From NCBI GenBank assembly GCA_963779615.1, contig CAVZZA010000003.1:352001-416000 (forward strand): a DNA stretch of 64,000 nucleotides. Reading direction: 5' to 3'. The position numbers and the translations under genes are program-made. The DNA is from an uncultured Nitrososphaeraceae archaeon (GTDB taxonomy: Archaea; Thermoproteota; Nitrososphaeria; Nitrososphaerales; Nitrososphaeraceae). Of the stretch, positions 16,773 to 64,000 are shown one piece after another (positions within the stretch are counted from its first letter, which is position 1; each line of letters starts with the position of its first letter). A model generated the notes under the pieces. That model searched no databases and was not told the origin of the DNA. It saw only the letters and a list, made by a program, of their open reading frames with translations.

Positions 16773-16853
16773 TTTCCTTTTCTGTTCCAGACTATTCCAA
16801 CAATTGCGACAACAACGGCAAAATTTTATCAAAAAGCTGTACAGAAGATGAAA

Positions 16854-18494: not shown

Positions 18495-19706
18495 CTAGGC
18501 GGGCCTTCCATAGGCGTTGGTTACTGTGCATGTGGCCGCCTGTCCCGCGTTATTTATTGTGCCGTTGCACCCTTCCGAAAATGTCGTTGTGAGGGGGGCT
18601 ATCACCGAGACGGTGTCACCAGCAGAGTTTGCCACATACAAAAACCCGTTGTCTTCATTAAAGGTGATGCCTCTTGGAGCGTTTCCCACGGGTATGGGTG
18701 AGCCCACAACAGTGTTTGTTGTGCCGTCTATCACGGAGACGGTGTCACTAATCAGGTTTGTCACGTATAAGAAACCGTTGTCTGGGTTGAAGGCGATGCC
18801 AATTGGAGTGTCTCCCACAGGTATTGGAGACCCAACAACCGTGTTTGTTGTGCCGTCTATCACGGAGACGGTGTCATCATCAGCGTTAGCCACATACAAA
18901 AACCCGTTGTCTGGGTTGAAGGCGATGCCAATTGGGTTGTTTCCCACAGGTATGGGAGACCCAACAACCGTGTTTGTTGTGCCGTCTATCACGGAGACGG
19001 TGTCAAAAATAGAGTTTGTCACGTACAGATTGCCGTTGATGGGGTTGAAGGCGATGCCTCTTGGATTGTTTCCCACAGGTATAGTATCTATAACAAATCC
19101 AGGCGGTGCGTTACTCTCCATTATATGGTATGTAACAGGGAATGGAGGGTTTATCGTCAGTGGTGTTCCGCTCTCTGAGCCATCAAAGGAGAGAGAGGAC
19201 CCGTTGCCTGTGGTTGCGGTGATGTTAAATGTGTTGGCGGTGGGACATTCAACCATAGTAGAAGCAAAATTACAGACGACATGTTTGGCTACTGTCAAAG
19301 TACTTGTTGTTGGTGTTGGTGTTGGTGTTGGTGCTGTTCCGTTCCCCGCTGTTTGTGGTGTTGGTGTTGTTGATAACGCAGGTTGCTGCTGTTGTTGGAT
19401 GTTTTTGCTCTGGTCGTTAAAGCCTGATGCTTCATTGTCTTTTCCTGTTATTTGCTCACCTTCATTTGCCTGCTCGCAACCGTCAGGCCTATAGCATAAG
19501 TCATCTTGATCCAAATGCTGATTTGAGCGCTCTGACTTAGAGTCTATGTCCTTGTGTATGCTGTCTTTGTAGTCTTTGGTGGTTTTATGATCGCCATTGT
19601 CACCAGCGACGGCGGCGGCATAAGACTACACCGGAGCCAGGTTTGGCCCACTGACCAGCAAAGATGTTAATGAAGATAATATCAACAGAATCTGCAAAAT
19701 GCTCAT
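18495..19706 (-). pseudogene. Secreted YVTN-repeat beta-propeller protein with an in-frame TAG (19626-19628) after the signal peptide
   Basis: Four ~43-aa IPVG..P.GIAFNP.NG.LYV.N...DTVSVID repeats; upstream in-frame MSILQILLILSS...APV*SYAAA. Confidence 0.8.
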
Positions 19707-19904
19707 ATATGGTATATTGACCGTTTTGGGGCTTATTTGGGGTAGGCTATATAATACCTCAAGTTATTTTTGTGTTTATCGTCCTGCGAAAAACAGCATA
19801 ACACTGAAACCGAACAAACTAGAAGAAACGTTTACGGTATCTTCGATTTCTATGATGCACTATTCAGCCGTCCTTGGCAAACATCAACCCCCTTGACAGC
19901 AGCT

Positions 19905-20498
19905 TTAAAACTGTCTTGCCTGCCGACTCCTTTCCAAAAGCATCGCGTCATAGTGATCTATCCTTCTCATGAGCTCGTCTACATCCCTTTCCAGCTGGAA
20001 CTTTGTAGAGTTCAGCCTACCAATGTCAGCCGCAGTCTCAATGAGGGCTTGGTCCAGATTCCTGAGTTCCCCTGCCGCCCCTATAATACGGTGGATGTCC
20101 TTTTTGGTGGCTAGGCCCTCCCACTTAGCTGACTGTAAAGATACTCTAGTAGGCTGAACTCCTCATCACCCATCTCCCGATAGAGGGTCATCAACTTTTG
20201 CAGGTTCAAAAGGCGCAAATAGTCACCATACACCCCCAATACCTCGTCTGTTTCCATGTCCAGGGCGATTGCCGTATCGACCAAGCTCTTGCCCTCTTTG
20301 AACAGTCTGAAGGCTTTGGAGCACACTGATAAGCCTTTTTCACGGTATGGAGGTTCCCTCCTCACCAGCGTACCTTCTGAGTATGGTCCCAATGTCCTTA
20401 AGGGAGACATGCGCCACCTGTGCTATGTCCCTTGTGGTCTTGCCTTCCTTTGCCAGTTTTATTACAAGTGTCTCCTTTTCCTTTCGGGTTAAAATCAC
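19905..20498 (-). pseudogene. HTH DNA-binding protein of thaumarchaeal mobile elements, frameshifted
   Basis: VILTRKEKETLVIKLAKEGKTTRDIAQVAHVSLKDIG, then in another frame SKAFRLFKEGKSLVDTAIALDM; homologous to 58414-58977. Confidence 0.7.
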
Positions 20499-20816
20499 TC
20501 TAGACGCATGTACATATGGCCAAAGTATTAAAAAAGTCCTGATTCCCTGATTTTTTATGTCATTTTATGACGCTGTTGCAGGGTCAATCAACATATGACA
20601 AGCGCTATAATTCCCAAACAAGTGATGCTTTAAAAGCCACACAGGCACCTAGCAGCCAACAAAGTGAGTTGTTTTTAGACGCCCAGCTCCAACAAATTGC
20701 GGCCAGCAGGATCAAGCAGAACACAGAACATGCTAGAACAATCAAGGGTGTTCCATATCAAAGCTCGATTTGGACTTGTATTTAGGCAATAAGGGTAGTT
20801 CAACCTTATTATTAAA

Positions 20817-20940
20817 TAGAACATATAGAACAATATATACATATATTATACATTCCCAAGAATATGGCTCTCTTTTTTGTCACCACATTTAAAATATAAG
20901 TGGACATAGGGTACAGATGTTCTAAATGTTCTATGTTCTA
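20817..20940. repeat. Iteron-like cluster: direct TAGAACA boxes facing inverted TGTTCTA boxes
   Basis: TAGAACATATAGAACA (20817) ... TGTTCTAAATGTTCTATGTTCTA (to 20940). Confidence 0.6.
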
Positions 20941-20978
20941 TCTTAAACATTTAATACTTTTTTGTCCACTATGTTGAC

Positions 20979-21055
20979 TATGTCATTCCTCTCCAAGTCA
21001 GAGATCCAATACCTTCAGGTCCAAAAGCAGGTTTCAGGGTCCTATGGGTGCAAGG
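20979..21055 (+). pseudogene. Second integrase N-terminal remnant
   Basis: MSFLSKSEIQYLQVQKQVSGSYGCK versus MSLLSKSETLYLQGQKPVSKSYEYK at 22988. Confidence 0.65.
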
Positions 21056-21221
21056 CAAGGACTATTTTTCCTTGGGCCCATGAAATGGATACTACGCTGT
21101 TTCCCGATTTTGGCCTGACTAATAGGAAAATGCTCGGTGTGTCAAGGTGTGTTCCCTTGGGACAAACTCAAGGGTTACAAGACATGGTTTCCGAGGAACA
21201 GGCGCAACGGAAACGACCTCT

Positions 21222-22898
21222 ATGAGCAATAAACCCGGGGGGCTTCCGCTAAGCAGAGCCCATGTCGAGCAGATATTTCCGAAATTAACCCCAGCACAGA
21301 TTAATCGAATTGCAGCGCGTGGGGGGCACATGCGTGCGATGGAACCTGGGGACGTGCTCGTCGAGCAGGGGGACAGCGCCACACCGTTCTTTGTGGTGGT
21401 CTCGGGCGAGCTTGAGATTGTGCGTCCCTGCGGCGCCGTTGAGACACTCATCACCGTACATGGCCCAGGCCAATTCACAGGCGAGCTCAACATGCTCTCC
21501 GGCCGCCGGGCCCTCTTTCGAGCACGCGCCACGAAGGCGGGCAGCGTGATTGAACTTGACCGGCAACATATGATGGCTTTGATGCAGGGTGATGACGAGC
21601 TTGGCGAGATCCTGATGCGGGCTTTCATCCTCCGCAGGGTTGAGTTGGTGGCCGCTGGCGTTGGAGATGTTGTGCTCATCGGGTCAGCAAATTCTGCCGG
21701 CACGTTTCGAATAAAAGAGTTTCTGATGCGCAACGGCCACCCCTACCACTACATAGACCTTGAGCGCGATCCAGACGTGCAGAGCCTGCTGGACAATTTC
21801 CATGTTTTAGCAAGCGAGATACCCGTTGTGATCTGCCAGGGCAAGCTTGTGCTTAGAAACCCCAGCAACAGGCAAATCGCAGACTGTCTTGGCTTCAACG
21901 AACCCATCGACCAGACCCAGGTACGCGATCTCGTAATCATCGGCGCCGGCCCATCCGGGTTGGCTGCGGCAGTGTATGGCGCCTCCGAGGGGCTTGACGT
22001 TCTTGTGCTGGAGACGAGCTCGCCCGGGGGCCAGGCCGGCTCAAGCTCTAAAATCGAAAACTACCTTGGGTTTCCAACCGGCATCTCGGGTCAGGAGCTT
22101 GCAGCTCGCGCGTACAACCAGGCGCAAAAGTTCGGAGCGGAGATGCGCATCACCAGGGGCATGCGACTCACCTGCGACCGCAAGCCATACATAGTAGAAG
22201 TCGAGAATGGGGGCCGAATTCCGGCCCGAACCGTCATAATTGCAACCGGGGCCGAGTACCGGAGGCCTCCATGCAAGGACCTGCAGCGCTTTGAGGGGGC
22301 TGGTGTGTATTATGGCGCAACCTTTCTGGAAGCGCAGATGTGTGTAGGAGAAGAGGTGATTGTGGTTGGCGGCGGAAATTCGGCCGGCCAGGCTGCCGTT
22401 TTTTTGGCCCAGAAGGCAAAGCGTGTCCATATGCTTGTTAGGTCTGCCGGTTTGGTCGACAGCATGTCGCGATACCTTATCCGCCGCATAGAGGAGAATC
22501 CCACTATTGCATTGCGGACGCACACCGAGATCGGGGCGCTCGAAGGGGAAAGTCACCTGGAATCTGTTAGGTGGCAAAACAGCCAAACGGGGCGGACTGA
22601 GGATCACAGCATCAGGAACGTGTTCGTCATGGCCGGTGCTGCCCCGAACACCACTTGGCTTGGTGGCTGCGTCGCCCTCGACCCAAAGGGCTTCATCAAG
22701 ACAGGCCCCGATCTGTCGCCAGAGAACCTTGGCACTGCAGGCTGGCCCCTTGCCCGTCAGCCATATCTGCTCGAAACCAGTTTGCCTGGGATTTTTGCTG
22801 TTGGGGACGTGCGTGGGGGCAGCATAAAGCGGGTTGCCTCCGCTGTGGGCGAGGGGTCAATCGCCATCTCGTTTGTCCATCAAGTGCTTCGTGAATGA
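21222..22898 (+). CDS. Cyclic-nucleotide-binding domain fused to thioredoxin-reductase-like FAD oxidoreductase
   Basis: cNMP domain (GDVLVEQGD, GQFTGEL), GAGPSG, VGGGNSAGQAA, FAVGDVR...KRVASAVGEG; GC-rich relative to the flanks. Start taken at the ATG at 21222. Confidence 0.9.
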   Translation: MSNKPGGLPLSRAHVEQIFPKLTPAQINRIAARGGHMRAMEPGDVLVEQGDSATPFFVVVSGELEIVRPCGAVETLITVHGPGQFTGELNMLSGRRALFRARATKAGSVIELDRQHMMALMQGDDELGEILMRAFILRRVELVAAGVGDVVLIGSANSAGTFRIKEFLMRNGHPYHYIDLERDPDVQSLLDNFHVLASEIPVVICQGKLVLRNPSNRQIADCLGFNEPIDQTQVRDLVIIGAGPSGLAAAVYGASEGLDVLVLETSSPGGQAGSSSKIENYLGFPTGISGQELAARAYNQAQKFGAEMRITRGMRLTCDRKPYIVEVENGGRIPARTVIIATGAEYRRPPCKDLQRFEGAGVYYGATFLEAQMCVGEEVIVVGGGNSAGQAAVFLAQKAKRVHMLVRSAGLVDSMSRYLIRRIEENPTIALRTHTEIGALEGESHLESVRWQNSQTGRTEDHSIRNVFVMAGAAPNTTWLGGCVALDPKGFIKTGPDLSPENLGTAGWPLARQPYLLETSLPGIFAVGDVRGGSIKRVASAVGEGSIAISFVHQVLRE

Positions 22899-22987
22899 AG
22901 CAGCAGGCAAGTCAAACGCGACGGGTTTGACTTTCTACCGTCCCCGGCCCAAAAAACCTTATTAGTGTAAGACGGGCTGCTTTAACC

Positions 22988-23297
22988 ATGTCCCTCCTCT
23001 CAAAGTCTGAAACCCTCTACCTGCAGGGCCAGAAGCCGGTTTCAAAGTCCTATGAGTACAAGTTAAAGTCCGTCATCAGGAAAAAGATGGCCCACCTGTT
23101 GGACAAGAAGCTGCCGCTCTTGTCATCACTTTTCCCCAAACTCAACCTTACTGGATTTGGTAAGGGAGGAGGCCCTCTCAAGGCGACGATCCCGGGTTCA
23201 AATCCCGGCCGGAGCATTTCCTTTTCTGTTCCAGACTATTCCAACAATTGCGACAACAACGGCAAAATTTTATCAAAAAGCTGTACAGAAGATGAAA
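22988..23297 (+). pseudogene. Integrase N-terminal part, int(N), reading through attR
   Basis: The ORF runs through the att repeat (GGPLKATIPGSNPGRSISF...CTEDE) and is in frame with int(C) after excision. Confidence 0.8.
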
Positions 23298-23779
23298 TAC
23301 TGTATGTCCAGGCAAACAGGGCAAAAGGGAAACCACATCCAAATCACGCAGGATTATGAATCCTAATTTTTTGGCAATTCAGCAATTTAATTTGTTTTTA
23401 GTTATTTCATCAACACTATTGTCAGCATTTGACAAAATGGGTCTCGTCAAAATACCAAATTTAAGACTAACAATCTGAAATCAAGGCAAACATGGCTTTA
23501 TGATGCTATTATGAAATAATGGCTGCTGCACCATGTATTATTTGTTAACTAATGGTTTTTTTGGATAGACGAAATACCCATATTTGGATTGCCCGGCTAT
23601 GGCGTTCCAAACAAAAAACAAAAACACTACATTATTACATAAAAAAATGAGCCCGACATTTTACTATAGAAATAAGTATAATAATCATACTATTTTTTTA
23701 AGTATAATAAACTCCTAAAACATTTGCAGTATATATTTACCCATTATTAATATGCAATAAAATCATTAGTAAGTTAAGT

Positions 23780-24004
23780 ATGAAAAACATATCTTTTTTG
23801 TTGATGATGGTGGCAATAACATCACTATTAGTTGCAGGAATAACCTCGACTACAATGCAGGCGGATGCTTTTAAAAGTAAAAATTCGCAAAAGGGTACAA
23901 ACTTCTGTTATAGATCTGATGGTTGCGACCAATCCAACATAGGACAACAGGCATCAGGCAAAAATAACAAATTAGTTGGATTTACCGATCAAAGCACAAA
24001 TTAA
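23780..24004 (+). CDS. Small secreted protein with a Cys-pair/GFxDQS motif
   Basis: Signal peptide followed by NFCYRSDGCDQSNIGQQASGKNNKLVGFTDQSTN. Confidence 0.7.
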   Translation: MKNISFLLMMVAITSLLVAGITSTTMQADAFKSKNSQKGTNFCYRSDGCDQSNIGQQASGKNNKLVGFTDQSTN

Positions 24005-34253: not shown

Positions 34254-34346
34254 GGGCCGGTAGTTTAGCCTGGTAGAATACCTGCCTTGCATGCGTATTT
34301 GCAGAGGACACGTGGGTGGTCGTGGGTTCGAATCCCACCCGGTCCA
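34254..34346 (+). tRNA. tRNA-Ala (anticodon TGC) with a 19-nt intron (~34291-34309)
   Basis: GGGCCGG/CCGGTCC-A with G3:U70; BHB motif with CCTT/GAGG helix, GCA and ACA bulges, and inner TGCG/TGCA helix. Confidence 0.9.
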
Positions 34347-34398
34347 TGTCATTTCTGTATGTTTTTTTAGTTCCATAACGCAATTACTGTTGCTAGAG

Positions 34399-35652
34399 AT
34401 GCAGTCCTATTCCCAACACCAAAGCGACCATGACTTTCAGAACCCGTATTTTAGGTTTATGTATGCCATAAAATCCCCTGAAACCAAGAAAAGATATCCT
34501 GACAGGTTTAAGGCATTTCTGGATTATGTTGGGATAAATGACACTGGTATCGAGGAAAGGCTAATTAACTTTTATAATGGAGCAATACAAAATCCTCAAT
34601 GGCTTCAGAGTTCTCTTATGAACTTTATAATATTTCAGAAAGAGCGGGTCATTAAAGGAGAAATAGAGGCTTCCACCATTTCCAACTATTACAAACCCAT
34701 TAAACTTTTTTGTGACGTGAATGACATTCTTATCAACTGGAAATTTTTGTCAAGAGGCATTCCAAAAGGAAAGCATGCCTCTGATGACAGGGCGCCCACT
34801 CTTGAAGAAATTCAACAATTGTTAAAGTATCCCGATATTCGAATAAAGCCTATCGTTTTATTCATGGTTTCTTCAGGAATAAGAATAGCTGCATGGGATT
34901 TTCTTAAATGGAAACACATCATCCCAATCGAAAATGATAATGGGATTCTAATAGCAGCCAAAGTGATTGTTTATGCAGGCGACCCTGAGCAATACTATTC
35001 TTTTATTACCTCTGAATCATATAACGCATTAAAAAACTGGATGCAATGTCGCGCTTCTTGTGGTGAGAAAATATCTGGAGAGAGCTGGGTCATGCGTGAT
35101 CTATGGAAGACTACAAACATGCCATTTGGTTCAAGATACGGATCAGCAACACAACCTCTTAAACTAAAAAATGAGGCGATTCGCACAATCCTATGCAGAG
35201 CACTTCTCCACCAGAATATAAGAGTCCAGTTAAAAGAGGGTAAAAAACGCCATGAGTTCAAAGCTGCCCATGGATTCCGAAAATACTTTAAAACCCAATG
35301 CGAGAATCTGATGAGGCCCGCCAACATAGAATTGCTGATGGGGCATAACATTGGAATATCAAAGTCCTACTACAAGCCCACAGAGAAAGAGATGCTAGAG
35401 GATTATCTCAAAGCAGCTGACTTGTTAACCATTAGCCAAGAGAACAAATTAAAAACACAGGTTAAAGAACTAACAAAGAAAAACAACGAGAAAGACTACA
35501 TGATAAACGTGGCCATGATGGAGAAGGACAGAGAGGTGGAAAACCTCAAAAAACAGGACAAGATAAAGGAGGAGGCATTGATAAAGCTGTCGGATCAGGT
35601 GATGCTACTTATGAAGGACATGCAGGGAATCAAATCCAATCAAAACATATGA
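34399..35652 (+). CDS. Tyrosine recombinase/integrase with coiled-coil C-terminus
   Basis: SSGIRI (Arg), HGFRKYF (HxxR), LLMGH, YY; appears intact. The ORF is also open upstream to 34291. Confidence 0.92.
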   Translation: MQSYSQHQSDHDFQNPYFRFMYAIKSPETKKRYPDRFKAFLDYVGINDTGIEERLINFYNGAIQNPQWLQSSLMNFIIFQKERVIKGEIEASTISNYYKPIKLFCDVNDILINWKFLSRGIPKGKHASDDRAPTLEEIQQLLKYPDIRIKPIVLFMVSSGIRIAAWDFLKWKHIIPIENDNGILIAAKVIVYAGDPEQYYSFITSESYNALKNWMQCRASCGEKISGESWVMRDLWKTTNMPFGSRYGSATQPLKLKNEAIRTILCRALLHQNIRVQLKEGKKRHEFKAAHGFRKYFKTQCENLMRPANIELLMGHNIGISKSYYKPTEKEMLEDYLKAADLLTISQENKLKTQVKELTKKNNEKDYMINVAMMEKDREVENLKKQDKIKEEALIKLSDQVMLLMKDMQGIKSNQNI

Positions 35653-35671: not shown

Positions 35672-37735
35672 TTATATTATGACAAAATCGAATTTGTGAT
35701 TCCTGCATCTTTGACATTGGATATTTTTTGTGTAGCTGTACAAAGCAGCATGAGATTTACCATAAAACAAATACATGACATATATGATTGTTGGCACGGT
35801 AAAATAGGTATATTCATTAACGCAGTTTTCACAAGTTCCCTCTATTACTACCATATTGAATTTATCTCTATTACGGTATCTTTTATCTTCATATTTTGCA
35901 AAGTCATGCACCTTTCTTTCGATTAGCGTATTAAGGTGTGTTCTTATGTGGTTAAAGAACAATTCGCCGTTATGCGCATCTAGACTCATCATCGAGTCTT
36001 TCCATAAATCCATTAATTTTTCGTTTTTTAATTCACTATCCTCAGGCCTTGATAATATCAACCTTGTAAAAAAATCAGCACTGCTATAGACATCTTTGCT
36101 ATATAGAAAATAATCAATGTAATGTTTTACAAACTCGTTGAAGAGTTTTGATTCCTTGCAAGAATGAAAATATTTTTTACAAAATATGTCAAGAGAGAAT
36201 GGATGGTCCTCAAAATACAGGATCCATTCATTGTATATCTCATCACATGTCTTGTCGTTACATTGTTCACTTTGTGCTTTTGAGATTAATGCAACATTAC
36301 TACCCAATCTAGATAATTGATATTCTTCAATCATTAAATTTAATGTATTAGCTTTAACGGGTTTGAATACAACCAAGCCCAGAATTTTGAGACCATTCAG
36401 ATAGCCATCGAATTGATTGTTGTATTTGTTAATGTATTTTTGCGGCTCCTTTGTTGAATCAAAATAAAATGTTTCTGGTTCTTTTGTTAGGCAGTTTATT
36501 ATCATCTCTCTTTTCTTAAAAAACTTGTTTTTATTGCCATGTAAAAATTTCAGTATTGCTTGGTAGCGCTTTGATCTGTTAGTAAAATCGTTATCCCTAT
36601 TTCGCTCAAAAATTGTTCCAAATGTATCTAACTGGGATTCAAAAACTCTAATTCTAATGTCCCTCTTTTTTTTAACCCCGCTAGCAATGGTTTCTTTGAC
36701 AAATTTTGTTTTATTTATAAACTCAAAGTCCAACAATCCGGCAAGGCATTCAGGGTTACGGCATTTTACATCCATCAAATTGGTTTTCTCATTGGTTCCC
36801 GTTTTTGCGTATAGCAAAAAGTAGTCTTTCGTGCTTATTTTGCAAGGTGTATACCTGTTGCAACTCTTGCAATATCCCTCTAACACGGAAACATAAGGTT
36901 CTTGTCTTGCTTGGAATCGAAATTCTTCAAAGCCTTTCAAATCCCTGCTTTTTCTTTCATTTATCTCCTCCAGGCTTAATTTGAGATTGTAAAACAAAAC
37001 TTCATACTTTAACGGATATGTGTTATCCATGTCAACAAACGATTCACAAAGTTTTTGCCATGAATTCTTGCCCCATATTGGATTTGGGTTGTTGATTCGG
37101 TATATGAATAGCTCTTTATCAGCCGTTGCGGTTTCCAATAAGTCAATGAGAGCTTCCATCAGTTCCTTAAAAACAGGAGTGTTATGACATTTTTTAAGAA
37201 AAACGGAAAAAAACTTTGCTTGAGAATATTCCATTCCTTCGTAAAAGTCAATGATTTGTTGATAAAGATTTTGTGAAAATATGATCCTGCGATCCTTGTA
37301 AGACAGTAATAAGCCTATTAGCCTACCTAATTTAGCAAATGTGTATTCTTTTGTATTCTCTTTATTATGCGATATAACGTCCCTAGAAATAATCAAACCT
37401 AAATGTTCCAGATTCTCCAAGGCGTCCTTGATGCGATCTTTTATGTTAAATGCTCTGACATCGTGTTTGGTTTTACCTCTGTCACCACTATACAAATCAA
37501 TATAAACTTGACAATTGTGAATAACCCATTTTTCGCTAATTTCCATGACTTTAAAGTAATGATCCAAACCAATCGTTGTACAATACTTTAGGATTGATTG
37601 ATAGATAAGAGCATCATCAGTGTATTTTTTTTGTATGTGTTTTGTGGACTGAAAGGAATTGTATGACTGATCATCAAACTCTGCTACTTCTTTTTTTTCT
37701 ACCAATGAGTTAAACCCTATCTGATCATTTAGCAT
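35672..37735 (-). CDS. Internally duplicated protein (2 x wHTH-like + helical + Zn-binding CxxC..CxxC)
   Basis: YQSILKY..LEHLGLI..EYTFAKLG..EGYCKSC..CRNPEC versus YQAILKF..LKILGLV..EYQLSRLG..EGTCENC..CQRC. Confidence 0.75.
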   Translation of the reverse strand: MLNDQIGFNSLVEKKEVAEFDDQSYNSFQSTKHIQKKYTDDALIYQSILKYCTTIGLDHYFKVMEISEKWVIHNCQVYIDLYSGDRGKTKHDVRAFNIKDRIKDALENLEHLGLIISRDVISHNKENTKEYTFAKLGRLIGLLLSYKDRRIIFSQNLYQQIIDFYEGMEYSQAKFFSVFLKKCHNTPVFKELMEALIDLLETATADKELFIYRINNPNPIWGKNSWQKLCESFVDMDNTYPLKYEVLFYNLKLSLEEINERKSRDLKGFEEFRFQARQEPYVSVLEGYCKSCNRYTPCKISTKDYFLLYAKTGTNEKTNLMDVKCRNPECLAGLLDFEFINKTKFVKETIASGVKKKRDIRIRVFESQLDTFGTIFERNRDNDFTNRSKRYQAILKFLHGNKNKFFKKREMIINCLTKEPETFYFDSTKEPQKYINKYNNQFDGYLNGLKILGLVVFKPVKANTLNLMIEEYQLSRLGSNVALISKAQSEQCNDKTCDEIYNEWILYFEDHPFSLDIFCKKYFHSCKESKLFNEFVKHYIDYFLYSKDVYSSADFFTRLILSRPEDSELKNEKLMDLWKDSMMSLDAHNGELFFNHIRTHLNTLIERKVHDFAKYEDKRYRNRDKFNMVVIEGTCENCVNEYTYFTVPTIIYVMYLFYGKSHAALYSYTKNIQCQRCRNHKFDFVII

Positions 37736-38157: not shown

Positions 38158-38625
38158 ATGAGTTCTACAAATTCTCTCGATAATGCATCCAATCCTAATG
38201 ATGTTTGGAGTCCCGGATATTTGGCTGACAGCATCTTTGTCAGTCTGATGGAAAATGGATATGATGAGAATACAAAGTCCAATGAATATATCATTCAGTT
38301 TGTAGAGAAATTCAGATTCCTTAGAATTAGGTCTAATTCCACATTTTTTGAAATCAACACAAAAGATCTGGACAAAGACACAATATCACAAATCAATGAT
38401 TATGCAAAAGACTGTAGAACAAGGGAAGAAAGATATCACAGGTTAAATGGAGTTATTGTAGAGGCAATTGCGCTAATAGCCAAACAGGCAGAGCCTTTGA
38501 TTTTATCATCCATCGCAAATGAAGAACTAATATGGACTAAAACTTCTCTCTATCGGGTTAGAGAGACCCTCTCTCAGAAATGGAAGTTAGTAGGAGTTGA
38601 TAAAAATAATGAGCGAACCAATTGA
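38158..38625 (+). CDS. Hypothetical protein overlapping the helicase gene (possible replication partner)
   Basis: 155-aa ORF that overlaps the next gene. Confidence 0.6.
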   Translation: MSSTNSLDNASNPNDVWSPGYLADSIFVSLMENGYDENTKSNEYIIQFVEKFRFLRIRSNSTFFEINTKDLDKDTISQINDYAKDCRTREERYHRLNGVIVEAIALIAKQAEPLILSSIANEELIWTKTSLYRVRETLSQKWKLVGVDKNNERTN

Positions 38626-40591
38626 TGATCTAATAGGTTACTTCCCTTCTTCTGATGACACTTCCCAAACAAAAGATAAAGATATTGCAATGTCCATTAC
38701 AAATACATCTAAACCCAAAAAAGAAAAAGAAGATTGGGAACCAATAAGAACCCAACCAGAAATATTAATGGAAATTGCTGAAAAGAGCATAGATGTTTTA
38801 TTCAAAGACCAACACAATGATGGCCTTGCCACTGTTTCCATAAATTCTCATTATGAAGTTGTTCCATTAACAAGCAGTAGATTCACAAGGCTTTTGGCAA
38901 AGACATACCATGACAATACCGGAAAATTTGCAAATAACGAATCCATAAAGAACGTTGTAAACACACTGCAAGCCAAGGCAGAATTTGGAGACACACAATA
39001 CCCGCTATCACTAAGGGTGGCCAAACATGAAGGGGACATATATTATGACTTAACTAATGAAAGGCATCAAGCAGTTAAAATATCACAAAATGGAAGATGG
39101 GAAGTGATAGACAAGACACCTGTGCCACTATTTAGTAGATACAACCAAACACCACAAGCCCTGCCATTTGCGGATCCCTTGTCAGATGATGAACAGGACC
39201 CTCTTGAAGACTTTCTTTCAAAACTGACAAACATCAAAGACGGGGAAACAAGGTTGCTTGTCAAGGTGGCGTTGATTTCTTGGTTTATCCCGGATATCCC
39301 CCACATACTTTTGATAGTTCATGGAGGAAAGGGAAGCGCCAAATCCATGTTTTTGACTTTGATCAAATCCCTTGTGGATCCCGCCAAACCCTCTCTCTTG
39401 ACCATACATGATGACAAATCAGAGTTTATTCAGCAACTTGCGCACAACTATTTGGCTGCCTATGACAACCTAAAATACAATCCAAGATGGCTTTCAGATG
39501 AAACTTGCAAAGCCATAACGGGAATAGGTCATACAAAAAGAGCACTATATACCAATGATGAAGACAAAATATACGAGTACAAGCGTTGTTTGATGTTCAA
39601 TGGAATTAACATCGCGTTTTCTGAATCGGACATTCTAGATAGAAGCATCCCTATCGAACTATGTGAAATAAAGCCGGAGCACAGAAGGACCGAAAACGAA
39701 ATACTTGAGGAGTATAACAAACTAAAACCGAAAATACTAAAACAAATTTTGGATACATTGGCAAAATCCATCACAATAAAAAAAGGTGTTAATGTAAAGA
39801 ACTTGCCAAGGATGGCCGACTCTGCCATATGGGGTGAGGCAATTTCGAGGGCCATGGGCTACAAGGAAAACGGGTTTCTTGACGCATATCATAACAACAT
39901 CAGGTTACAGAACGCCGAGGTAATTGACTCAAACCCTGTAGCGTTTGCGATAAAGAAGTTTGTTGAAAATGCAACAGCTTCTGATGATGGTGCCTTTAAC
40001 TTCAACTCCAACAATCCAATCTTTAAGGGCACACCCGCTGAATTGCTTGATAGACTAAATGAAGTGGCACTAGAGAACAAGATAAGCACTTACTCAAGGG
40101 AGTGGCCAAAGGACAAAAAATGGCTTGTGAGGAGGATAAAAGAGATAAAGCAAAACCTGCAACAGGATCTTGGCATTGATATAATAATAGAGAGAGACTC
40201 AAAAAACACCTCCATAGTAAAGATAGAGAAAAATGTCTCCAGTGACTCCGGTGAGCACAAAATGTCTCCGGAAAACGAGAGTTTAACTCCGTATTTGGAA
40301 GAAATGTCTCCGGAAAAAGACAGGATGTCTCCAGACAATCATGACGATACAAGCACAGAATCTATCAAGTCCGGAGACAATGGAGACAATGGAGACATTT
40401 CCCATATATCCATAGAGGGAGATGATAAAACTAAAGACAATGTAAAAGAAACCGAAGGGTCAGACATAGACCAAATGATAGGGTTTAGAGAGCCATTTCA
40501 TTACTGCAAGAAGCACCCCCACGTCCAAAACATACATCGGGAAGAGATAGAGCACCATATCCGATATTCCAAAGAACATGGTGGAAATTAG
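38597..40591 (+). CDS. Plasmid/satellite-type SF3-like helicase/ATPase replication protein with C-terminal CxxH..H..H Zn finger
   Basis: Walker A HGGKGSAKS, Walker B LAAYDNL, motif C MFNGIN, DILDRS, LPRMAD. The low-complexity tail (MSPE, GDNGDNGD) is encoded by the repeat module. Confidence 0.8.
   Translation: MIKIMSEPIDDLIGYFPSSDDTSQTKDKDIAMSITNTSKPKKEKEDWEPIRTQPEILMEIAEKSIDVLFKDQHNDGLATVSINSHYEVVPLTSSRFTRLLAKTYHDNTGKFANNESIKNVVNTLQAKAEFGDTQYPLSLRVAKHEGDIYYDLTNERHQAVKISQNGRWEVIDKTPVPLFSRYNQTPQALPFADPLSDDEQDPLEDFLSKLTNIKDGETRLLVKVALISWFIPDIPHILLIVHGGKGSAKSMFLTLIKSLVDPAKPSLLTIHDDKSEFIQQLAHNYLAAYDNLKYNPRWLSDETCKAITGIGHTKRALYTNDEDKIYEYKRCLMFNGINIAFSESDILDRSIPIELCEIKPEHRRTENEILEEYNKLKPKILKQILDTLAKSITIKKGVNVKNLPRMADSAIWGEAISRAMGYKENGFLDAYHNNIRLQNAEVIDSNPVAFAIKKFVENATASDDGAFNFNSNNPIFKGTPAELLDRLNEVALENKISTYSREWPKDKKWLVRRIKEIKQNLQQDLGIDIIIERDSKNTSIVKIEKNVSSDSGEHKMSPENESLTPYLEEMSPEKDRMSPDNHDDTSTESIKSGDNGDNGDISHISIEGDDKTKDNVKETEGSDIDQMIGFREPFHYCKKHPHVQNIHREEIEHHIRYSKEHGGN
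40234..40397 (+). repeat. ~170-bp iteron module copy R1, inside the helicase CDS
   Basis: TGTCTCC boxes at left and internally; CCGGAGACA-ATGGAGACA-ATGGAGACA at right. Confidence 0.9.
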
Positions 40592-41580: not shown

Positions 41581-41639
41581 CTATTTTTCACCAAGCAATT
41601 ATAAAATAAAGTTACAGATTGATATAAAGATGGAGAATA

Positions 41640-41768
41640 TCTCTCCGATGACTCCGGTATCTCCAGAGGAGCATAAATTGTAATCCAAAATCCGGACATA
41701 TTTTATTTCTTAATCAATTTGTCTCCGGTTTTGCAAAGTTATGTCCGGAAATGAAAGAAAGAGTTAAG
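41640..41768 (+). repeat. Module copy R2 (right-hand boxes lost)
   Basis: TCTCTCCGA-TGACTCCGG-TATCTCCAG..GAGCATAAAT..TCCGGACATA..TGTCTCCGG..TATGTCCGG. Confidence 0.85.
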
Positions 41769-42053
41769 GATTATCTGTTGAAAATATCATATTGTGCTTA
41801 TCGCTATTGCATTGTTAATTGAAAGTTGTTGCTACTAGTCGTCAAGCCAAGTTGAAGGTCAAGGGTGTCCACGAGGTGGGGACACAGAGGAGACAGCGTT
41901 GTTTTACAGACCTTGCAGTATTTCTACCAAACTGCCCTTACCTTCAAAGGATACTATATATGCACGATTATATTTCTGGGTTGGTCCAAACCATATCATG
42001 ACAAACGAGATGCTTTCTGATTAGCAGGTGCGCTCCGAATTAAAAGAATACAT

Positions 42054-42978: not shown

Positions 42979-43431
42979 CTATACTATCATAGACATCAGA
43001 CCTAACGAGTATTTTAGAGATAGACCGACAAAATCCATCAGTGGCTGAATGTTTCTAGTATTAAATTCAGAAATATCTTTTGAGACGGTAAAATGGAGTT
43101 TAGAATTTGGAGGTATTATGAATCCCTTCAAAGGTTTTGTAAGCTCAGGTGTTTTTGGACTTTGTGTAAGCTCAGGTGTTTTTGGACTTTGTGTAAGCTC
43201 AGGTGTTTTTGGACTTTGTGTAAGCTCAGGTGTTTTTGGACTTTGTGTAAGCTCAGGTGTTTTTGGACTTTGTGTAAGCGGATGATTTGTGATACCTTTT
43301 GGAGGTGTAATTGGTTTTACTTCACGTTGAGCATCCGATTTGGTAATGATGTTGTTTGTTAGCAGCATCAGCACGGTTAAAATTAATAATGTTGTCGCTA
43401 AAGCCATAATCTCAGAATTGTATTTACTCAC
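42979..43431 (-). CDS. Secreted protein with (TQSPKTPEL)5 repeat; possibly truncated
   Basis: Signal peptide; 27-bp unit x5 at 43138-43279. Confidence 0.65.
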   Translation of the reverse strand: MSKYNSEIMALATTLLILTVLMLLTNNIITKSDAQREVKPITPPKGITNHPLTQSPKTPELTQSPKTPELTQSPKTPELTQSPKTPELTQSPKTPELTKPLKGFIIPPNSKLHFTVSKDISEFNTRNIQPLMDFVGLSLKYSLGLMSMIV

Positions 43432-46078: not shown

Positions 46079-46387
46079 TTAGGATCACCATATGTTTTCT
46101 GTAATTGTTGCCAATGGCATAAAGATTGCTGCAATACCCAAACTATTAATAGAAGTGGTAATAGTGATGTCAGGATAGTTCAATTAAACTCTAAAAAATT
46201 GTCTTAACGGCTTCTGTGGGTACGTAAATACTTGGATTACCATAAGAGGAATAGATAATCAGCATCATCCGGAAACATTCCTTATTTAAGAGGCATTTTC
46301 ACATTAAAATAATTATTTGTAGTTTTTTTTCTCATTTTTAGTCTAAATATATATGTTGTTACTAAATTCATAACAAGGTAGGAAATT

Positions 46388-46559
46388 TGTCTCCAATATC
46401 TCCGGTATCTCCGGGTAAGCACAAATATGCACAAAAAACCCGGACATAACTTATCTCCTAAACAAGTTGTCTCCGGTTTTGCAAAGTTGTCTCCGGACAA
46501 TAACCGATAAAACAAGCACAAGTTCACTATTTCCGGATACACCGGAGACATCGGAGACA
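46388..46559 (+). repeat. Module copy R3
   Basis: Three left boxes, boxes at +80 and +100, three inverted right boxes. Confidence 0.95.
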
Positions 46560-46947
46560 TTTTTGGTATACTCTGGGAGGACACTAAGAAACAGTAAAGA
46601 TTGGGGTTCAACAATTGCAATTTTTATGAATCATCATCAGTGTAAGATATTCAAACCAAAGACACTAATCGATTGTAAAAAATAACCGCTTAATCAAAAA
46701 AGCTATGTGCCATTTCAACATATTTATAAACATAACCTTGGCATTTTCTTCAAAGAATTCTGAATATTCCAATGGAACAGACGAAGACATGTTTGGCAAC
46801 AAGATAAGAATACTAAGAAGGTAAAATCATAAGACTTCTAATTAGAACAAAGAGTGAACGATGGATAAGCTGGCGCAGTTTTTACAATGAAAATCTTTAT
46901 TAAGGATTATTCAACCTTTGAGAAGGTTTATTGATAAAACTGGTTGT

Positions 46948-48534: not shown

Positions 48535-48677
48535 AATGGATATTGAGAATTGTTCTATTAAACAATTTCTTTTTCTTTGTGATTAAATAATATTTTCACA
48601 AGAACTAGCTTCGTGTTGCAATAACGTTTTACTTCATGGAACTTGACATATGCTAATATCCATAACAACACAAAATT

Positions 48678-48850
48678 TGTCTCCAATGTCTCAGGTATCT
48701 CCGGGTAAGCACAAATATGCACAAAAAACCCGGACATAACTTCTCTACTGATTAATTTGTCTCCGGGTTTCCAAAGTTATATCCGGATTAAAAAAAATAA
48801 ATTTAAGCATAAATTTTAGTATTCCGGAGACAGCGGATATAGCGGAGACA
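48678..48850 (+). repeat. Module copy R4
   Basis: Left half almost identical to R3. Confidence 0.95.
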
Positions 48851-49136
48851 TATTCAAGAAACTGGAGGAAGAAGGAGAGGATAAAATCAAAGGCAGCTCA
48901 GGTGTATCTACAAATTCTAATATGGACCGTCTAATTGCATACAGGAGCCCTTTTATTATTGCAAACAACATCCTATAGTCCAAAATATTTACAAAGAAAT
49001 AGGTTTCATGTCCTACATTCCACGATGCATAAATTCTCTGGATAGCGGAAGTGCCAATAGGAGTCCTATAGGGTGTAGAATTAGTATTTACATGACATGT
49101 TCACGGCCTCTTGTCGTGGACTTCTTCGGGCATGCC

Positions 49137-50486
49137 TCATTTTGGGTTACGGTGCTTATCTAGTTCCTTTATTATGTCATCCAGGTAGTGTTTGGCATCT
49201 TCTTCTGAAAGACTTGGTTGTACACCAACCTCCCCAACCACCTTGTCATGGTGTTCTTTAACCAGGTCTGCCACCTTATCTTCCAGTAGGGCATTCATTT
49301 GTGCCCTGCCTATACTGTCTAACAGTTTTAACTCCTTTACAGCTGCTCTTCGTATCGACTTTAGTAATTTTGCGTCCTCCGATATTGAAATTGCTGATGA
49401 GTATAATCCCACATAGAAAACAAAAGACGCCAACCCTAAAGACGCGCCCGTAGCCATTCCAAATGGCGGGTATGGGATAAACAGGATATTGGCAATAATG
49501 GGTAGAAACAGCATGGCCACACCATAACCAGATATATCAAGAAAATCAGCAACAATGCTTTGTCGAATTTGGCGTATACCTCTTGCTAGCGCCAAAAATG
49601 AGACACCAAACAGCATCCCTCCAGCTATAGTGGCCAAAACAGTTAGAACCCTGAATAAAACTCCATCCTGTTCATAAAAGGTAAAATTGGCATTTGGGAT
49701 TCCAATCAAGGTATGGACCTGCCCTATCAGGACAAAAACTGGAGGAAGAAAGATAACCATCCAATAGGCCGTGGATTTTCCTAATCTGCGAGAGTACCTG
49801 TAGAGCAAAACTGCAGAAACAACCCACAAAAGCAGAAAACTGGTGATCAAAAGTATCACTGCTGCATTCAATAAATTGCCACTGATATCTGTCGTCAAAT
49901 GAGACGAATTATCAATAGACAAGTCATCCTGGAATTGCACTGATGATGATTTTTTCATCACTGGGGCATTCAAAAACACACCAGCCACACCGGTGTCCAA
50001 TGCGGTGCTGCCAATCAGCATAAATGCAATTGCCACGCCATACAAAAACACAATAGTGTTTTGTTTACTGGACCTGTACCATGAAAAGAATCTGCATGCC
50101 AGTAGCCCCAATGAAATGTAAAACGGTATGGAACTGACTACTGAAGAGATTATTAGCAATGGAGTAAAATATTGCGATGTTGACACCATTTGGATAACCG
50201 TAAAAAGAAATATCGCGATAATCAATAACTGTACTATAACTGTTAACTCGTATACTTTATTGAATGCCGAGTTAGTTGTTCTAAGGTGCTCACTTTGCTT
50301 TTTTAAAGGTCCCAAAAGAAGGATTAGCCCAACAACAAGTATAATGGCTGAAACAGATATGAAGAATGCTAGTCCCCAACTAGAATCCACCTCCCTACTG
50401 ATAAAGTCATAAATGTTAGAGGTTATGGTATCGATTATTAACGCACCAATCAAAATCAGCATTATGATAAAGGTTGTTATGTTCAT
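49137..50486 (-). CDS. Polytopic membrane protein
   Basis: ~10 hydrophobic segments and a soluble C-terminal tail. Confidence 0.8.
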   Translation of the reverse strand: MNITTFIIMLILIGALIIDTITSNIYDFISREVDSSWGLAFFISVSAIILVVGLILLLGPLKKQSEHLRTTNSAFNKVYELTVIVQLLIIAIFLFTVIQMVSTSQYFTPLLIISSVVSSIPFYISLGLLACRFFSWYRSSKQNTIVFLYGVAIAFMLIGSTALDTGVAGVFLNAPVMKKSSSVQFQDDLSIDNSSHLTTDISGNLLNAAVILLITSFLLLWVVSAVLLYRYSRRLGKSTAYWMVIFLPPVFVLIGQVHTLIGIPNANFTFYEQDGVLFRVLTVLATIAGGMLFGVSFLALARGIRQIRQSIVADFLDISGYGVAMLFLPIIANILFIPYPPFGMATGASLGLASFVFYVGLYSSAISISEDAKLLKSIRRAAVKELKLLDSIGRAQMNALLEDKVADLVKEHHDKVVGEVGVQPSLSEEDAKHYLDDIIKELDKHRNPK

Positions 50487-51031: not shown

Positions 51032-51129
51032 TTTTATACATTATTAATCCCTTATCTTAAACTTTTATTTTTGAAAGATATGATTGGGAAGTTACATTGG
51101 GTATATTACATGTTGAGCATTGAGAATTT

Positions 51130-51299
51130 TGTCTCCAATGTATCCGGTACCTCCGGCTGAGCACAAATAGTCACAGAAAATCCGGACATAACTTATCTCC
51201 TGTTTAACTTCTCTCCGGACTTATAGGTTATCTCCGGCTAACAACACAGATTTAAGCGTAAAATCTATAGTTCCGGAGACATCGGACACACCGGAGACA
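51130..51299 (+). repeat. Module copy R5
   Basis: Same box layout; followed by TTTTTGGTATACTC as in R3 and R8. Confidence 0.95.
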
Positions 51300-51434
51300 T
51301 TTTTGGTATACTCGTGGGAAGATGACAGGATGAAAGTTGCGGATTAACAGAATGTTTTCAGGTGAGCGGGCAAGTAAGGCTACTGAGGATATAGTAGACT
51401 ATTCATTCAAGATTAAAATTTAAATTTAATATAA

Positions 51435-51582
51435 AGACCTCTTGCGTAATTAGAGAGGGGCCAAAACTTTACAAATTTCTTGTGCTTTTTAATAATATTT
51501 ATAATTTTAAGTCTGAATTCTAGTCAATAAGCAGGCATTGTTTTAGATATTTTTCTAGTAGTGCTAATTACGCAAGAGGTCT
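51435..51582. mobile_element. MITE (148 bp) related to the IS5-family element at 54373
   Basis: Perfect TIR AGACCTCTTGCGTAATTAG; TAA on both flanks (3-bp TSD). Confidence 0.85.
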
Positions 51583-51601
51583 TAATTAGATCTCTTAAAA
51601 C

Positions 51602-57648: not shown

Positions 57649-57952
57649 CTCGGACTTAGGGCATCCCACCATAATATTATCTGTATTTGGTCCAAATGAT
57701 ATTTCCATGATACTCTGGGAAGGGGGTGCGATCATATAATAGCCATTATCCACTAAAACTATTACGGAATTACATGTCTGTTTAGGTGGGATTAACTTCT
57801 TGATGGTATGCTGGACTGATTGAATTTGGATAATATGATTACCATAATCAATATCAACTACACATTCTGTACATATTCCTGTTGGCTATTCTAACGGATA
57901 AGCATAAAAAAATAAAACCATTACAACAGCATCCATAACAAAGTAGGAAAAT

Positions 57953-58124
57953 TGTCTCCGATGTATCCGATGACTCCGGCTGAGCACAGCTATACGCAGA
58001 AAACCCGGACATAACCTCTTTTCTTAACCAATTTGTCTCCGGTTCTGCAAAGTTATATCCGGATAAAAGCAAAAATTTAGTGCTTAAAATCTAGATTTCG
58101 GAGACACCGGACACACCGGAGACA
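57953..58124 (+). repeat. Module copy R6
   Basis: Same box layout (+81, +101, three inverted boxes). Confidence 0.95.
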
Positions 58125-58413
58125 TTTTTAGTTAATTGGTAAGAGATGCTGGGAAGTTTAGGGATAGGAATTTGCGAAAAAAGTATGGATAATATATGGA
58201 CAGAAAATAAAATAATGAAAAAAAATTGTTGATTCGTACAATCACAGCCCTCTCATAAAATAAAGACCAAACTTAATACCTCATCAGTAATAAGACATAG
58301 TAGGATTGAGAATATAAAAAAAGAAACAGGCAACCTCGTTCGCTGCATTTTGTGATTTGGTTTTTGATAAGGGCTTTATGGTTGGCAAAACAACAGTTCC
58401 CATGACTCATTCG

Positions 58414-60987: not shown

Positions 60988-61113
60988 GGTCTGGGCATAT
61001 CATTATCCACCTCAATATGGGAACTATGGCAACTGCCAACCTTTTTTTTACTGATTTTGGTAGGTTGGTTAAGGATTTTTCATGGTTGACCTTGCTGAAT
61101 TTAGTAAGATTTG

Positions 61114-61509
61114 TGTCTCCAATGACTCCGGTAACTCCGGTGAGCACAAAATGTCTCCGGAAAACGAGAGTTTAACTCCGTATTTGGAAGAAATGTCTCC
61201 GGAAAAAGATAAGATGTCTCCAGGCAATCGGGATGATGCAAGCATTAAATCCAACAGTTCCGGAGACACCGGACACAGCGGAGTCATTCCCTATATATCT
61301 AAGGAGGAAGTTGACAAAACTAAAGACGATGTAAAAGAAACCGAAGGGTCAGAAACAGATAAAATGATAGGGTTTAGAGAGCCATTTCATTATTGCAGGC
61401 AGCACCCCCATGTCCAAAACATACATCGAGAGGAGATAGACCACCATATACGATATTCCAAAGAGCACGTTGGAGAGTAGAAAACAAATGATGATGATAT
61501 TTATTTTTA
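61114..61509 (+). repeat. Duplicate of the helicase 3' end (40234-40623), including module copy R7 (61114-61286) and the Zn-finger tail
   Basis: SGEHKMSPENESLTPYLEEMSPEKD and GFREPFHYC..HPHVQNIHREEI.HHIRYSKEH nearly identical at DNA level. Confidence 0.95.
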
Positions 61510-63281: not shown

Positions 63282-63781
63282 GTCCTAACCTTTTTTCACT
63301 AACATAGACATCTACGCCCCAATTGGCCAATCCCTGTTGATTACCATTATGCAAACCATTTACCATAATTGATTAAAAAATAAATTTGAATTTACTGTTG
63401 TTTTCTCCATAAATGGGATTGGTAAATATAATTAGTAAAAATAAAGAAACTGTTATAAAAGAACTTGTTTAATTTTAAAAAGTTAGAGATAACGCATTTT
63501 TTTAAAGTCACTTGATGTAGTTTGCTTTTTATACGCAATTAAATACACTAATTTCTTCAAAAGAAAATAACTTTAGTAGATATCATTTTCTATATTGCTA
63601 AAACAAACATACTTTACCACTATTTGTATTTTAACTGTGGACTAAAGACAACGTAATCTACAAACAAACCGGTCAGTATCAACGACATTTTTATTATATT
63701 TTACATTAAATGAACTGCAGGAAAAATTGATTTCATCAATACAGTGGCCATATGACAACATTCAAAACATACTTGGAAACT

Positions 63782-63951
63782 TGTCTCCAATGTCTCCATT
63801 ATCTCCGGATAGGCACAAATATGCACTGAAAACCCGGACACAGCTTCTCTCTTTGCAATTTATATCCGGTTTTGAAAGGTTATCTCCGGATATTAACAAA
63901 GGTTTAAGCACAAGATTCATAGTTCCGGAGACACCGGACACACCGGAGACA
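63782..63951 (+). repeat. Module copy R8
   Basis: TGTCTCCAA-TGTCTCCAT-TATCTCCGG ... CCGGAGACA-CCGGACACA-CCGGAGACA. Confidence 0.95.
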
Positions 63952-64000
63952 TTTTCGGTATACTCTTTAGGAGGATAGAACCCAACAAAGATTCAAATAT

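Follow-up and report, generated by a model that had tools for sequence, protein, structure and literature searches.

A repeated 9-bp box array embedded in a D5-like helicase gene of an uncultured Nitrososphaeraceae archaeon: a candidate replication origin

The window analysed here is a 64,000-nucleotide stretch of DNA from an uncultured Nitrososphaeraceae archaeon, a soil ammonia oxidiser (GenBank assembly GCA_963779615.1, contig CAVZZA010000003.1, positions 352,001 to 416,000; genome G000 below). It carries an open reading frame (ORF) for a putative replicative helicase of 664 residues. The 3' end of this gene contains an array of short repeated boxes, and further copies of the array lie downstream. 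The boxes center on the 9-mer TGTCTCCGG, which occurred 18 times in the window, counting both strands. The mean for shuffled sequences was 0.16, and none of 100 shuffles reached 18. The whole 3.17-Mb assembly contained 32 exact copies, 18 of them between window positions 40263 and 63951. Coordinates of the features are given in Table 1.

The boxes are organized into a module of approximately 215 bp in which two to three direct boxes form a left arm, further boxes occupy the center, and three inverted boxes form a right arm. Eight copies were present in the window, all on the plus strand. The same genome contained three more copies on contig C5 and one decayed copy on contig C4, giving 12 sites in total. 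A nucleotide hidden Markov model (HMM) built from five non-coding copies only recovered the copy in the helicase tail, hereafter R1, with an E-value of 3.9e-15, and the copy at 61103-61311 with an E-value of 1.1e-21.

In the non-coding copies, three direct boxes (offsets +0, +9, and +18) are followed by one inverted box at +52, by two direct ones (+80 and +100), and then by three inverted ones (+145, +154, and +163). The tail-type copy at 61114 had boxes at +0, +9, +18, +38, +59, +80, and +101, then at +146 and +155; the layout of R1 was the same minus the first box. The sequence-only reading of this DNA had noted that R1 and the non-coding copies share the +80/+100 box geometry. This was borne out: the arms matched, and it was the central boxes that differed, in that tail-type copies had four forward boxes spaced 21 bp apart whereas free copies had one inverted box followed by two forward ones. 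The 9-bp spacing in both arms and the fixed central offsets were found in the seven full copies of the window and at 10 other loci. When folded as single-stranded DNA, the arms of R1 paired with z = -5.4 relative to shuffled sequences, and those of the free copy at 51119..51325 with z = -3.1. Based on its location and these folding scores, the module constitutes a long inverted repeat that can fold into a stem-loop at the helicase gene's 3' end. By eye, the stretch preceding the right arm looked AT-rich in the free copies and less so in the coding copy R1.

The helicase ORF reads through R1, as had been claimed from the MSPE/MSPD and SGDNGDNGD motifs of the protein, which are indeed translated boxes. 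Specifically, the forward boxes at 40263, 40305, and 40326 translate to MSPE, MSPE, and MSPD, respectively, and the inverted boxes at 40371, 40380, and 40389 to SGDNGDNGD. The forward boxes at 40234 and 40243 sit in another codon phase and yield NVS/SDSG. One box sequence is thus translated in two codon phases and from either strand, giving the unrelated peptides NVS/SDSG, MSPE/MSPD, and SGDNGD. Codon usage was skewed. Across ten related genes or gene fragments, proline was encoded by CCG in 33 of 41 module codons versus 14 of 113 gene-core codons (Fisher p = 3e-15, a value that is overstated as the sequences are kin). For comparison, CCG made up 22 of the 188 proline codons in 11 further long ORFs of the window. 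Finally, the boxes were the best-conserved columns in an alignment of nine non-coding copies despite stop codons and indels of 1-2 nt. Translation of the boxes in two phases and from either strand, the bias toward CCG, and the retention of boxes in non-coding copies together place the constraint on the DNA rather than on the peptide. The 3' end of the helicase gene is, by these sequence criteria, dual-function DNA that encodes a predicted disordered linker and carries a conserved, apparently cis-acting array of 9-bp boxes.

To place R1 among its relatives, 25 metagenome loci carrying helicase relatives were compared, the 3' region of the gene being present in 19. By the nucleotide HMM, 12 of these 19 carried a module at the helicase 3' end, down to 40% amino-acid identity, as did genomes G019, G011, G003, and G013. 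Six of the seven HMM-negative loci (L051, L054, L056, L063, and L065/L066, the last two of which gave identical matches) had the same layout in the same place, built from a different box. The arm layout was absent from the helicase 3' end of L070, a 27%-identical relative. The core of the main module box is CTCCGG. The corresponding cores were CTCCAC in L054 and L049, CTCCAG in L048 and L061, and CTCCACT in L063, with three further cores in L056, L065, and L051. At each locus, the left and right arms were reverse complements of one locus-specific core. Copies of the core were almost wholly confined to a single 260-bp stretch: 9 of 9 copies in L054 (2.9 kb), 6 of 7 in L063 (10.4 kb), and 9 of 9 in L049.

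A blind detector requiring three 9-bp repeats and three inverted ones fired in 12 of 29 helicase 3' regions versus 3 of 106 control windows. The 17 regions missed by the detector comprised eight with the CTCCGG module according to the HMM, two with locus-specific arms, and seven with nothing within 2.2 kb. One of the control windows in which the detector fired maps to approximately 20560-21200.

The coding status of the element varied among lineages. The ORF stops between the arms in L051, L054, and L065, whereas in L056, L063, and the family of the window it reads through into a zinc-finger-like end domain. The position of the element is thus fixed and its coding status lineage-dependent. The box word has changed several times, in both arms together, while layout and place remained constant. 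Fixed place and layout combined with joint change of the arms are in keeping with a cis-acting site in co-evolution with the protein encoded beside it; a peptide motif would not give such a pattern. The sequence-only reading had proposed to test whether the boxes of tails and of nearby repeats co-vary. In the three genomes in which a tail copy and a nearby free copy were both seen, they used the same box variant, which, with the joint arm change across subfamilies, strengthens the inference of an origin.

The helicase itself was recognizable at the level of fold only. Searches of Pfam, PHROGs, and NCBIfam matched no family at E ≤ 0.01, and none of the PDB sequences matched at E ≤ 1. Curated sequence models for D5/E5-like superfamily 3 (SF3) helicases (D5_N, Pox_D5, and COG3378-type) were not matched, and an HMM search detected no sequence homology to ORF904 of the Sulfolobus plasmid pRN1. 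A large protein search found 409 relatives at E ≤ 1e-3 among 8000 scored candidates, and those that were named belonged to Candidatus Nitrosocosmicus. A Prim-Pol domain (PF09250) was fused to 22 of 120 relatives among the matches listed. An AlphaFold model based on 18 sequences had a mean predicted local distance difference test score (pLDDT) of 66.4, with a confident N-terminal domain and a partly uncertain P-loop core. The top Foldseek matches were poxvirus D5/E5, the PrimPol of African swine fever virus (ASFV), NrS-1, the Cch helicase of the staphylococcal cassette chromosome SCCmec, and PriRep1, with E-values of 4e-5 to 1e-3; the probability was 1.00 for D5, E5, ASFV PrimPol, and NrS-1. 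The model thus supports a D5-like SF3 replicative helicase as the probable identity of the protein.

Three parts of the modelled C-terminal region bear on the module. Residues 476-545, encoded immediately before it, form a strand, two helices, and a beta hairpin (pLDDT ~80-90), a unit that was assigned by eye as winged-helix-like and that we infer to be a candidate reader of the boxes. A winged helix also follows the SF3 domain in pRN1 ORF904 and P4 alpha (PMC2777425). Residues 548-621, exactly the part encoded by the module, had pLDDT values below 50 and are predicted to be disordered. The small C-terminal domain that follows retains its Cys/His pattern in helicase relatives. It was rejected as the box reader because a second P-loop NTPase family (P0122 and P0123), from the module-free genomes G024 and G007, also terminates in this domain. 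The members of this second, unrelated family (G024 L031:3178-5151 and G007 L032:3423-5345, both on the minus strand; 657 and 640 residues) matched no Pfam family, and one lies 1.5 kb from an integrase. In some helicase relatives, the frame was interrupted: by one stop codon between core and tail in G011 (L038:8131-10143, minus strand), by three stop codons in G019 (L037:6752-9391, minus strand), and in G003 (L004) the gene was in three pieces. These interruptions could mean that the tail is an ORF of its own in these genomes or that the gene is in decay.

The sequence-only reading had also proposed R1 as the likely source of the free copies, which holds for one of them. The 132-residue ORF at 61082..61480 was 87% identical to R1 over 300 nt and 86% over 392 nt (76% at the amino-acid level), the likeness beginning at the left arm and running through the end domain. 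The copy it contains thus shares recent ancestry with R1. In a tree of ~200 columns without support values, from which coarse groups only were used, the remaining free copies of this genome formed a group with one from G019 and stood separate from every tail copy. Their layout, with an inverted central box, resembled the tails of other subfamilies rather than that of R1. Based on this separate clade and layout, R1 is not their source, and they probably represent an older lineage that was kept or spread within genomic islands. The free copies of G048, G011, and G010 were of the tail type and nested among tail copies.

Modules were present in 16 of the 34 genomes of the genus and in none of the three complete genomes that have only distant helicase relatives. 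G048 had 19 module sites, in 14 of 15 stretches fetched around reported places, and G011 had about 12 places by hand count, partly dispersed. In G000, G019, and G003, the tail copy was followed 0.5-2.6 kb downstream by a second copy. Among the metagenome loci, L058 (15 kb) had one module within ~10 kb downstream, and L050, L061, and L064, with 1.7-4.8 kb downstream, had one each. As long metagenome contigs hold a single module, the arrays appear to be a lineage-specific expansion. Some copies are decaying, including the C4 copy (C4a) and the truncated copy after the Kelch gene, which is more decayed in G016 and G005. The tail makes up a fifth of the protein, yet by a rough count it was covered ~20 times by helicase fragments in the genus, versus ~8 times for other parts. 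This over-representation suggests that the module is preferentially kept or spread.

Three long homology blocks had one end at the edge of a module. The copy at 57932..58154, together with 1053 bp to its left, was 84% identical to a stretch of C5, and the likeness ended a few bases past the last box. Of the other two long homology blocks, both C4a/C5c and R1/R61 broke at the left arm. In G048, the copies had mosaic left and right flanks. These patterns suggest that modules are prone to recombination, whether through a recombinase, the replication protein, or plain homologous exchange. As a separate observation, five G048 loci (L019, L020, L026, L027, and L016) shared a left flank of 140-280 bp, upstream of the modules, that has its own short direct repeat; four other G048 copies shared a right flank of 230-325 bp, and one copy, 350 bp from the start of an integrase, had both.

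Table 1. Features of the window around the helicase gene and the module copies.
Feature	Position in window	Strand	Basis or remark
tRNA-Ala(TGC), 93 nt; left border of variable island	34254..34346	+	ARAGORN; Rfam tRNA, 49.9 bits
Putative tyrosine-recombinase-type integrase	34291..35652	+	Pfam Phage_integrase, E = 1.8e-4, below curated cut-off
687-residue ORF; conserved element core, no family	35672..37735	-	Pfam, PHROGs, NCBIfam, PDB sequences
155-residue ORF; conserved partner directly upstream of helicase	38158..38625	+	Relatives in L038, L046, L053, L055
D5/E5-like SF3 helicase (predicted), 664 residues; Walker A, no fused Prim-Pol	38597..40591	+	Open ORF; fold match
Winged-helix-like unit (predicted), residues 476-545; immediately before module	40022..40231	+	AlphaFold model
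Module copy R1; dual-function DNA, encodes predicted disordered linker	40212..40428	+	Boxes 40234-40397
Small beta-beta-alpha, zinc-finger-like C-terminal domain (predicted), residues 625-660	40469..40576	+	AlphaFold model
Free module copy without right arm (truncated)	41624..41790	+	After Kelch gene
Free module copy, non-coding	46371..46590	+	Repeat search, HMM, box layout
Free module copy	48662..48881	+	Followed by decayed remnant of C-terminal domain, ~48921-49160
Free module copy, non-coding	51119..51325	+	Repeat search, HMM, box layout
Free module copy	57932..58154	+	Homology block shared with contig C5
132-residue ORF; tail-type module copy (61101-61317) and C-terminal domain	61082..61480	+	No helicase body
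Free module copy, non-coding	63763..63975	+	Repeat search, HMM, box layout

The helicase gene lies 4.2 kb downstream of the tRNA-Ala gene and the integrase and ~30 bp from the next gene. The true start of the integrase is probably later than that of the listed ORF, which overlaps the tRNA. Integrase relatives were present in 30 of the 34 genomes, module-free ones included; a linkage of integrase and module was rejected, as the family is widespread where modules are absent. Integrase fragments also come after this tRNA gene in G048. For the helicase and the 155- and 687-residue ORFs, searches of Pfam, PHROGs, NCBIfam, PDB sequences, and a protein atlas gave no family match. In metagenome locus L053, a 36%-identical relative of the 687-residue ORF is found next to the helicase gene pair. 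A hidden Prim-Pol in either of the two smaller-named ORFs, the 155- or the 687-residue one, was rejected, as neither had BLASTP similarity to a Prim-Pol-fused relative.

Synteny with the complete genomes G041 and G012 stops at the tRNA-Ala gene and resumes ~88 kb later in G000, the equivalent gap in G041/G012 being ~4.5-5.5 kb. The variable island thus extends from window position 34347 to approximately G000:C3:474900, and the whole module array lies in its first 30 kb. No attachment repeat of the tRNA was found inside the window; one repeat of 15 nt from the tRNA 3' end is located beyond the window, 39 kb downstream. As the flank beyond this repeat is not syntenic core, the island appears to be larger or composite. 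An Rfam scan of 34000-64000 found nothing besides the tRNA. According to Pfam, the genes between the modules, which lie on both strands, encode Kelch, PsbP-like, TPR/STAND, Mrr, and NosD-like proteins and a trypsin-PDZ protease, along with insertion sequence (IS) fragments.

Several other repeats were observed. At least six tandem 27-bp units with cores 86-100% identical occupy 43108-43323, within a minus-strand ORF (42979-43431; 150 residues, no Pfam match). Short repeats of ~150-180 bp at 51428-51583 and 46673-46853 have further copies, 70-86% identical, elsewhere in G000 and in several genomes of the genus; one of the two is next to the module at 46371 and, in G009, next to the helicase tail. 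A ~680-bp IS-like sequence beside the tRNA-Ala gene of G012 had more than 40 matching places in G000 (66-75% identity). Finally, the GC content of 16000-24000 was 0.42-0.50 versus ~0.36 elsewhere, and long overlapping ORFs occupy both strands at 18495-19514. A search of sequencing runs turned up one soil run with a share of 0.08 of the words, on which no conclusion is based.

Two characterized origins resemble the arrangement at the helicase gene. In phage lambda, the iteron origin lies within gene O, whose product comprises two domains with a flexible linker between them, and deletions within the AT-rich part of the origin still complement when they are in frame (PMC6022878). The likeness is an iteron array embedded in the coding sequence of its own initiator, here a putative one. 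The differences are that O is not a helicase and that ori-lambda, for which function has been shown, has four 18-bp palindromic iterons and a marked AT-rich region; in the window, the boxes are 9 bp long, in two inverted triple arms with central boxes, and the gene is that of an archaeal D5-like helicase. In pRN1, a stem-loop of ~100 nt directly 3' of the rep gene orf904, which encodes a Prim-Pol/SF3/winged-helix protein, serves as the origin, with conservation of structure and not of sequence (PMC4234260). Both systems pair an inverted repeat at the 3' end of a gene with the product of that gene, a replication protein, here a putative one, of the SF3/winged-helix type. In the window, an SF3-like fold and a winged-helix-like unit were modelled, and a Prim-Pol was absent from the helicase gene and not found in its neighbors. 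The pRN1 element is non-coding, and the available text describing it reports no periodic 9-bp boxes (PMC4234260), whereas in most subfamilies the module and the reading frame overlap, and orphan copies of the module have spread. A third comparison is more distant. The alpha protein of phage P4 binds short iterons in two separate clusters, ori and crr. That system is bacterial, its primase is of the DnaG type, and its iterons are not described as coding.

With moderate confidence, we propose that the module is the iteron array of the replication origin of the element, comparable to ori-lambda in gene O and to the pRN1 stem-loop. This proposal is carried by the DNA-level conservation of the boxes, their linkage to the helicase gene, and the joint change of both arms. 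The array would be the origin iteron set of a family of integrative, plasmid-like elements of Nitrosocosmicus. The D5-like helicase would bind the boxes, probably through the winged-helix-like unit encoded just upstream of the linker, and would be loaded head to head on the inverted arms, replication starting at the module. The free copies would then be orphan origin-like modules, one derived recently from a tail copy and the rest belonging to an older lineage. The earlier claim that R1 is the replication origin therefore stands in part: an origin-type cis element is strongly indicated by the joint arm change across subfamilies, and the claim stops short of proof.

A number of observations weigh against an origin. 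The fold match is modest (template modelling score ≤ 0.47 normalized by target, and pLDDT < 50 at residues 271-344), and no primase was recognizable in the element by Pfam or by BLASTP of the neighboring genes. Reading R1 by eye, without computing AT content, we saw no AT-rich unwinding stretch beside it. In 7 of the 29 regions, those of the long, 35-40% identical relatives from the genus (L006-L012), arms were absent within 2.2 kb. It is also unusual for an origin to be present in eight copies in 24 kb of a single island. The three long homology blocks that end at module edges (C5b/M57, C4a/C5c, and R1/R61) hint at recombination, and the ability of the arms to pair makes a hairpin in DNA or mRNA possible. 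Finally, the sequence-only reading had named a routine lack of the helicase from module-bearing elements as refuting it, and G048 goes partly in that direction: its helicase is only 43% identical and without a tail, no intact tail-bearing helicase being present despite the 19 module sites.

Iterons need not mark the start of replication. Iteron clusters beside plasmid rep genes can control copy number, and the array could likewise be an origin-linked control or partition locus, acting in copy number or segregation and bound by the same helicase, with replication starting elsewhere. We consider this unlikely, even though it accounts equally for the DNA conservation, the helicase linkage, and the joint arm change, and the second copy located 0.5-2.6 kb past the tail copy in three genomes is in its favor. 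No other origin-like repeat cluster was seen beside the helicase in the loci read, partition genes were not recognized in Pfam and PHROGs scans, and four metagenome loci with at least 1.7 kb downstream had a single module.

The module could alternatively be a site-specific recombination or cassette-junction site, of the integron attC or dif type, at which a recombinase assembles arrays of cargo genes. Integron attC sites are 57-141 bp long with R''-L''/L'-R' cores and occur with an IntI integrase and an attI site. As with attC, the modules are imperfect inverted repeats in one orientation among accessory genes near a tyrosine recombinase: all eight copies in the window and the three on C5 separate accessory genes in this way. 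The homology blocks that break at module edges and the mosaic flanks in G048 would also be expected of such a site, and an integrase relative lies 0.35-2.5 kb from the module in 3 of 15 G048 loci. However, the module is ~215 bp long with at least nine periodic boxes, the cargo genes lie on both strands, and the conserved home of the module is the helicase gene. Integron membership was rejected on module size and build, and the integrase scored below the Pfam cut-off even for the general phage-integrase family. Moreover, the integrase family also occurs in complete module-free genomes, the apparent attachment repeat of the island is the tRNA 3' end rather than a box, and the copies in G048 locus L027 are in mixed orientation. 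Homologous recombination between 200-bp repeats would also shuffle flanks. No pair of empty and filled sites was found for a free module, the likeness to G041 in the Kelch region stopping 120 bp before it. A dedicated recombination site is thus also improbable in our assessment.

It is quite improbable that the inverted arms serve simply as a hairpin, formed in single-stranded DNA or in a transcript and acting as a terminator, a stabilizer of the mRNA, or a translation switch for the end domain, with the 9-bp periodicity being incidental. The arms do pair, they change together across subfamilies, and in three subfamilies a stop codon lies between them. Nevertheless, a stem requires neither a three-fold 9-bp periodicity in each arm nor boxes of both orientations between the arms, and free copies far from gene ends keep their boxes. 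By eye, box variants of one arm were not mirrored in the other, which favors repeated binding sites.

Very improbable, too, is a selfish, non-autonomous repeat resembling a miniature inverted-repeat transposable element that colonized the helicase linker and intergenic sites. Such a repeat would account for an imperfect inverted repeat of ~215 bp at 12 sites in this genome, 19 in the fetched G048 stretches, and ~12 places in G011, partly dispersed. Yet the module occupies the same position in helicase genes of 40-76% identity, including box-switched versions in other subfamilies, which argues for vertical descent with the helicase gene. The flanks of free copies grade into helicase-derived sequence without sharp ends, no target-site duplications were seen in the flank alignment, in which no formal search was made, and no linked transposase was seen. 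Lastly, purely protein-level conservation of an SP/SGD linker motif, with free copies as decaying pseudogene pieces, is hardly credible and appears already contradicted: the SP...SGD pattern is visible by eye in 15 of 17 fetched relatives and decay is seen in some of the free copies (C4a and, in G016 and G005, the one following the Kelch gene), but the two codon phases, the CCG bias, and the boxes kept in non-coding copies with stops and indels speak against it, as do peptides that change completely with box type and the half of the module that lies beyond the stop codon in some subfamilies.

If the module is an origin iteron array, the orphan copies may have a function of their own. Extra origin copies in a cell block replication of the cognate phage lambda (PMC4488673), which suggests a possible decoy role for the orphan copies, with the difference that the lambda case involved an engineered multicopy plasmid in E. 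coli. More tentatively, the orphan modules could be a working array that titrates or mis-loads the helicase of incoming relatives, or provides helicase-dependent start points that amplify or shuffle cargo. We regard this as a doubtful, if conceivable, extension of the origin proposal. The first role, if true, would be incompatibility used as superinfection exclusion, as ectopic ori-lambda blocks lambda. The second, if true, would explain why homology blocks begin or end at module edges.

The modules were not described in the literature found by our search or in the text, supplements aside, of a 2019 survey of integrated elements in thaumarchaea (PMC6563490). In this previously unannotated helicase family of ammonia-oxidising archaea, an origin overlapping its initiator gene, as in lambda, would meet an origin at the 3' end of a rep gene, as in pRN1. 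The repeated replacement of the box at a fixed layout and position is a natural experiment that could reveal a recognition code between initiator and origin. To our knowledge, ammonia-oxidising archaea still lack replicating vectors; the 155-residue ORF, the helicase gene, and the module, together ~2.4 kb, are a candidate minimal replicon.

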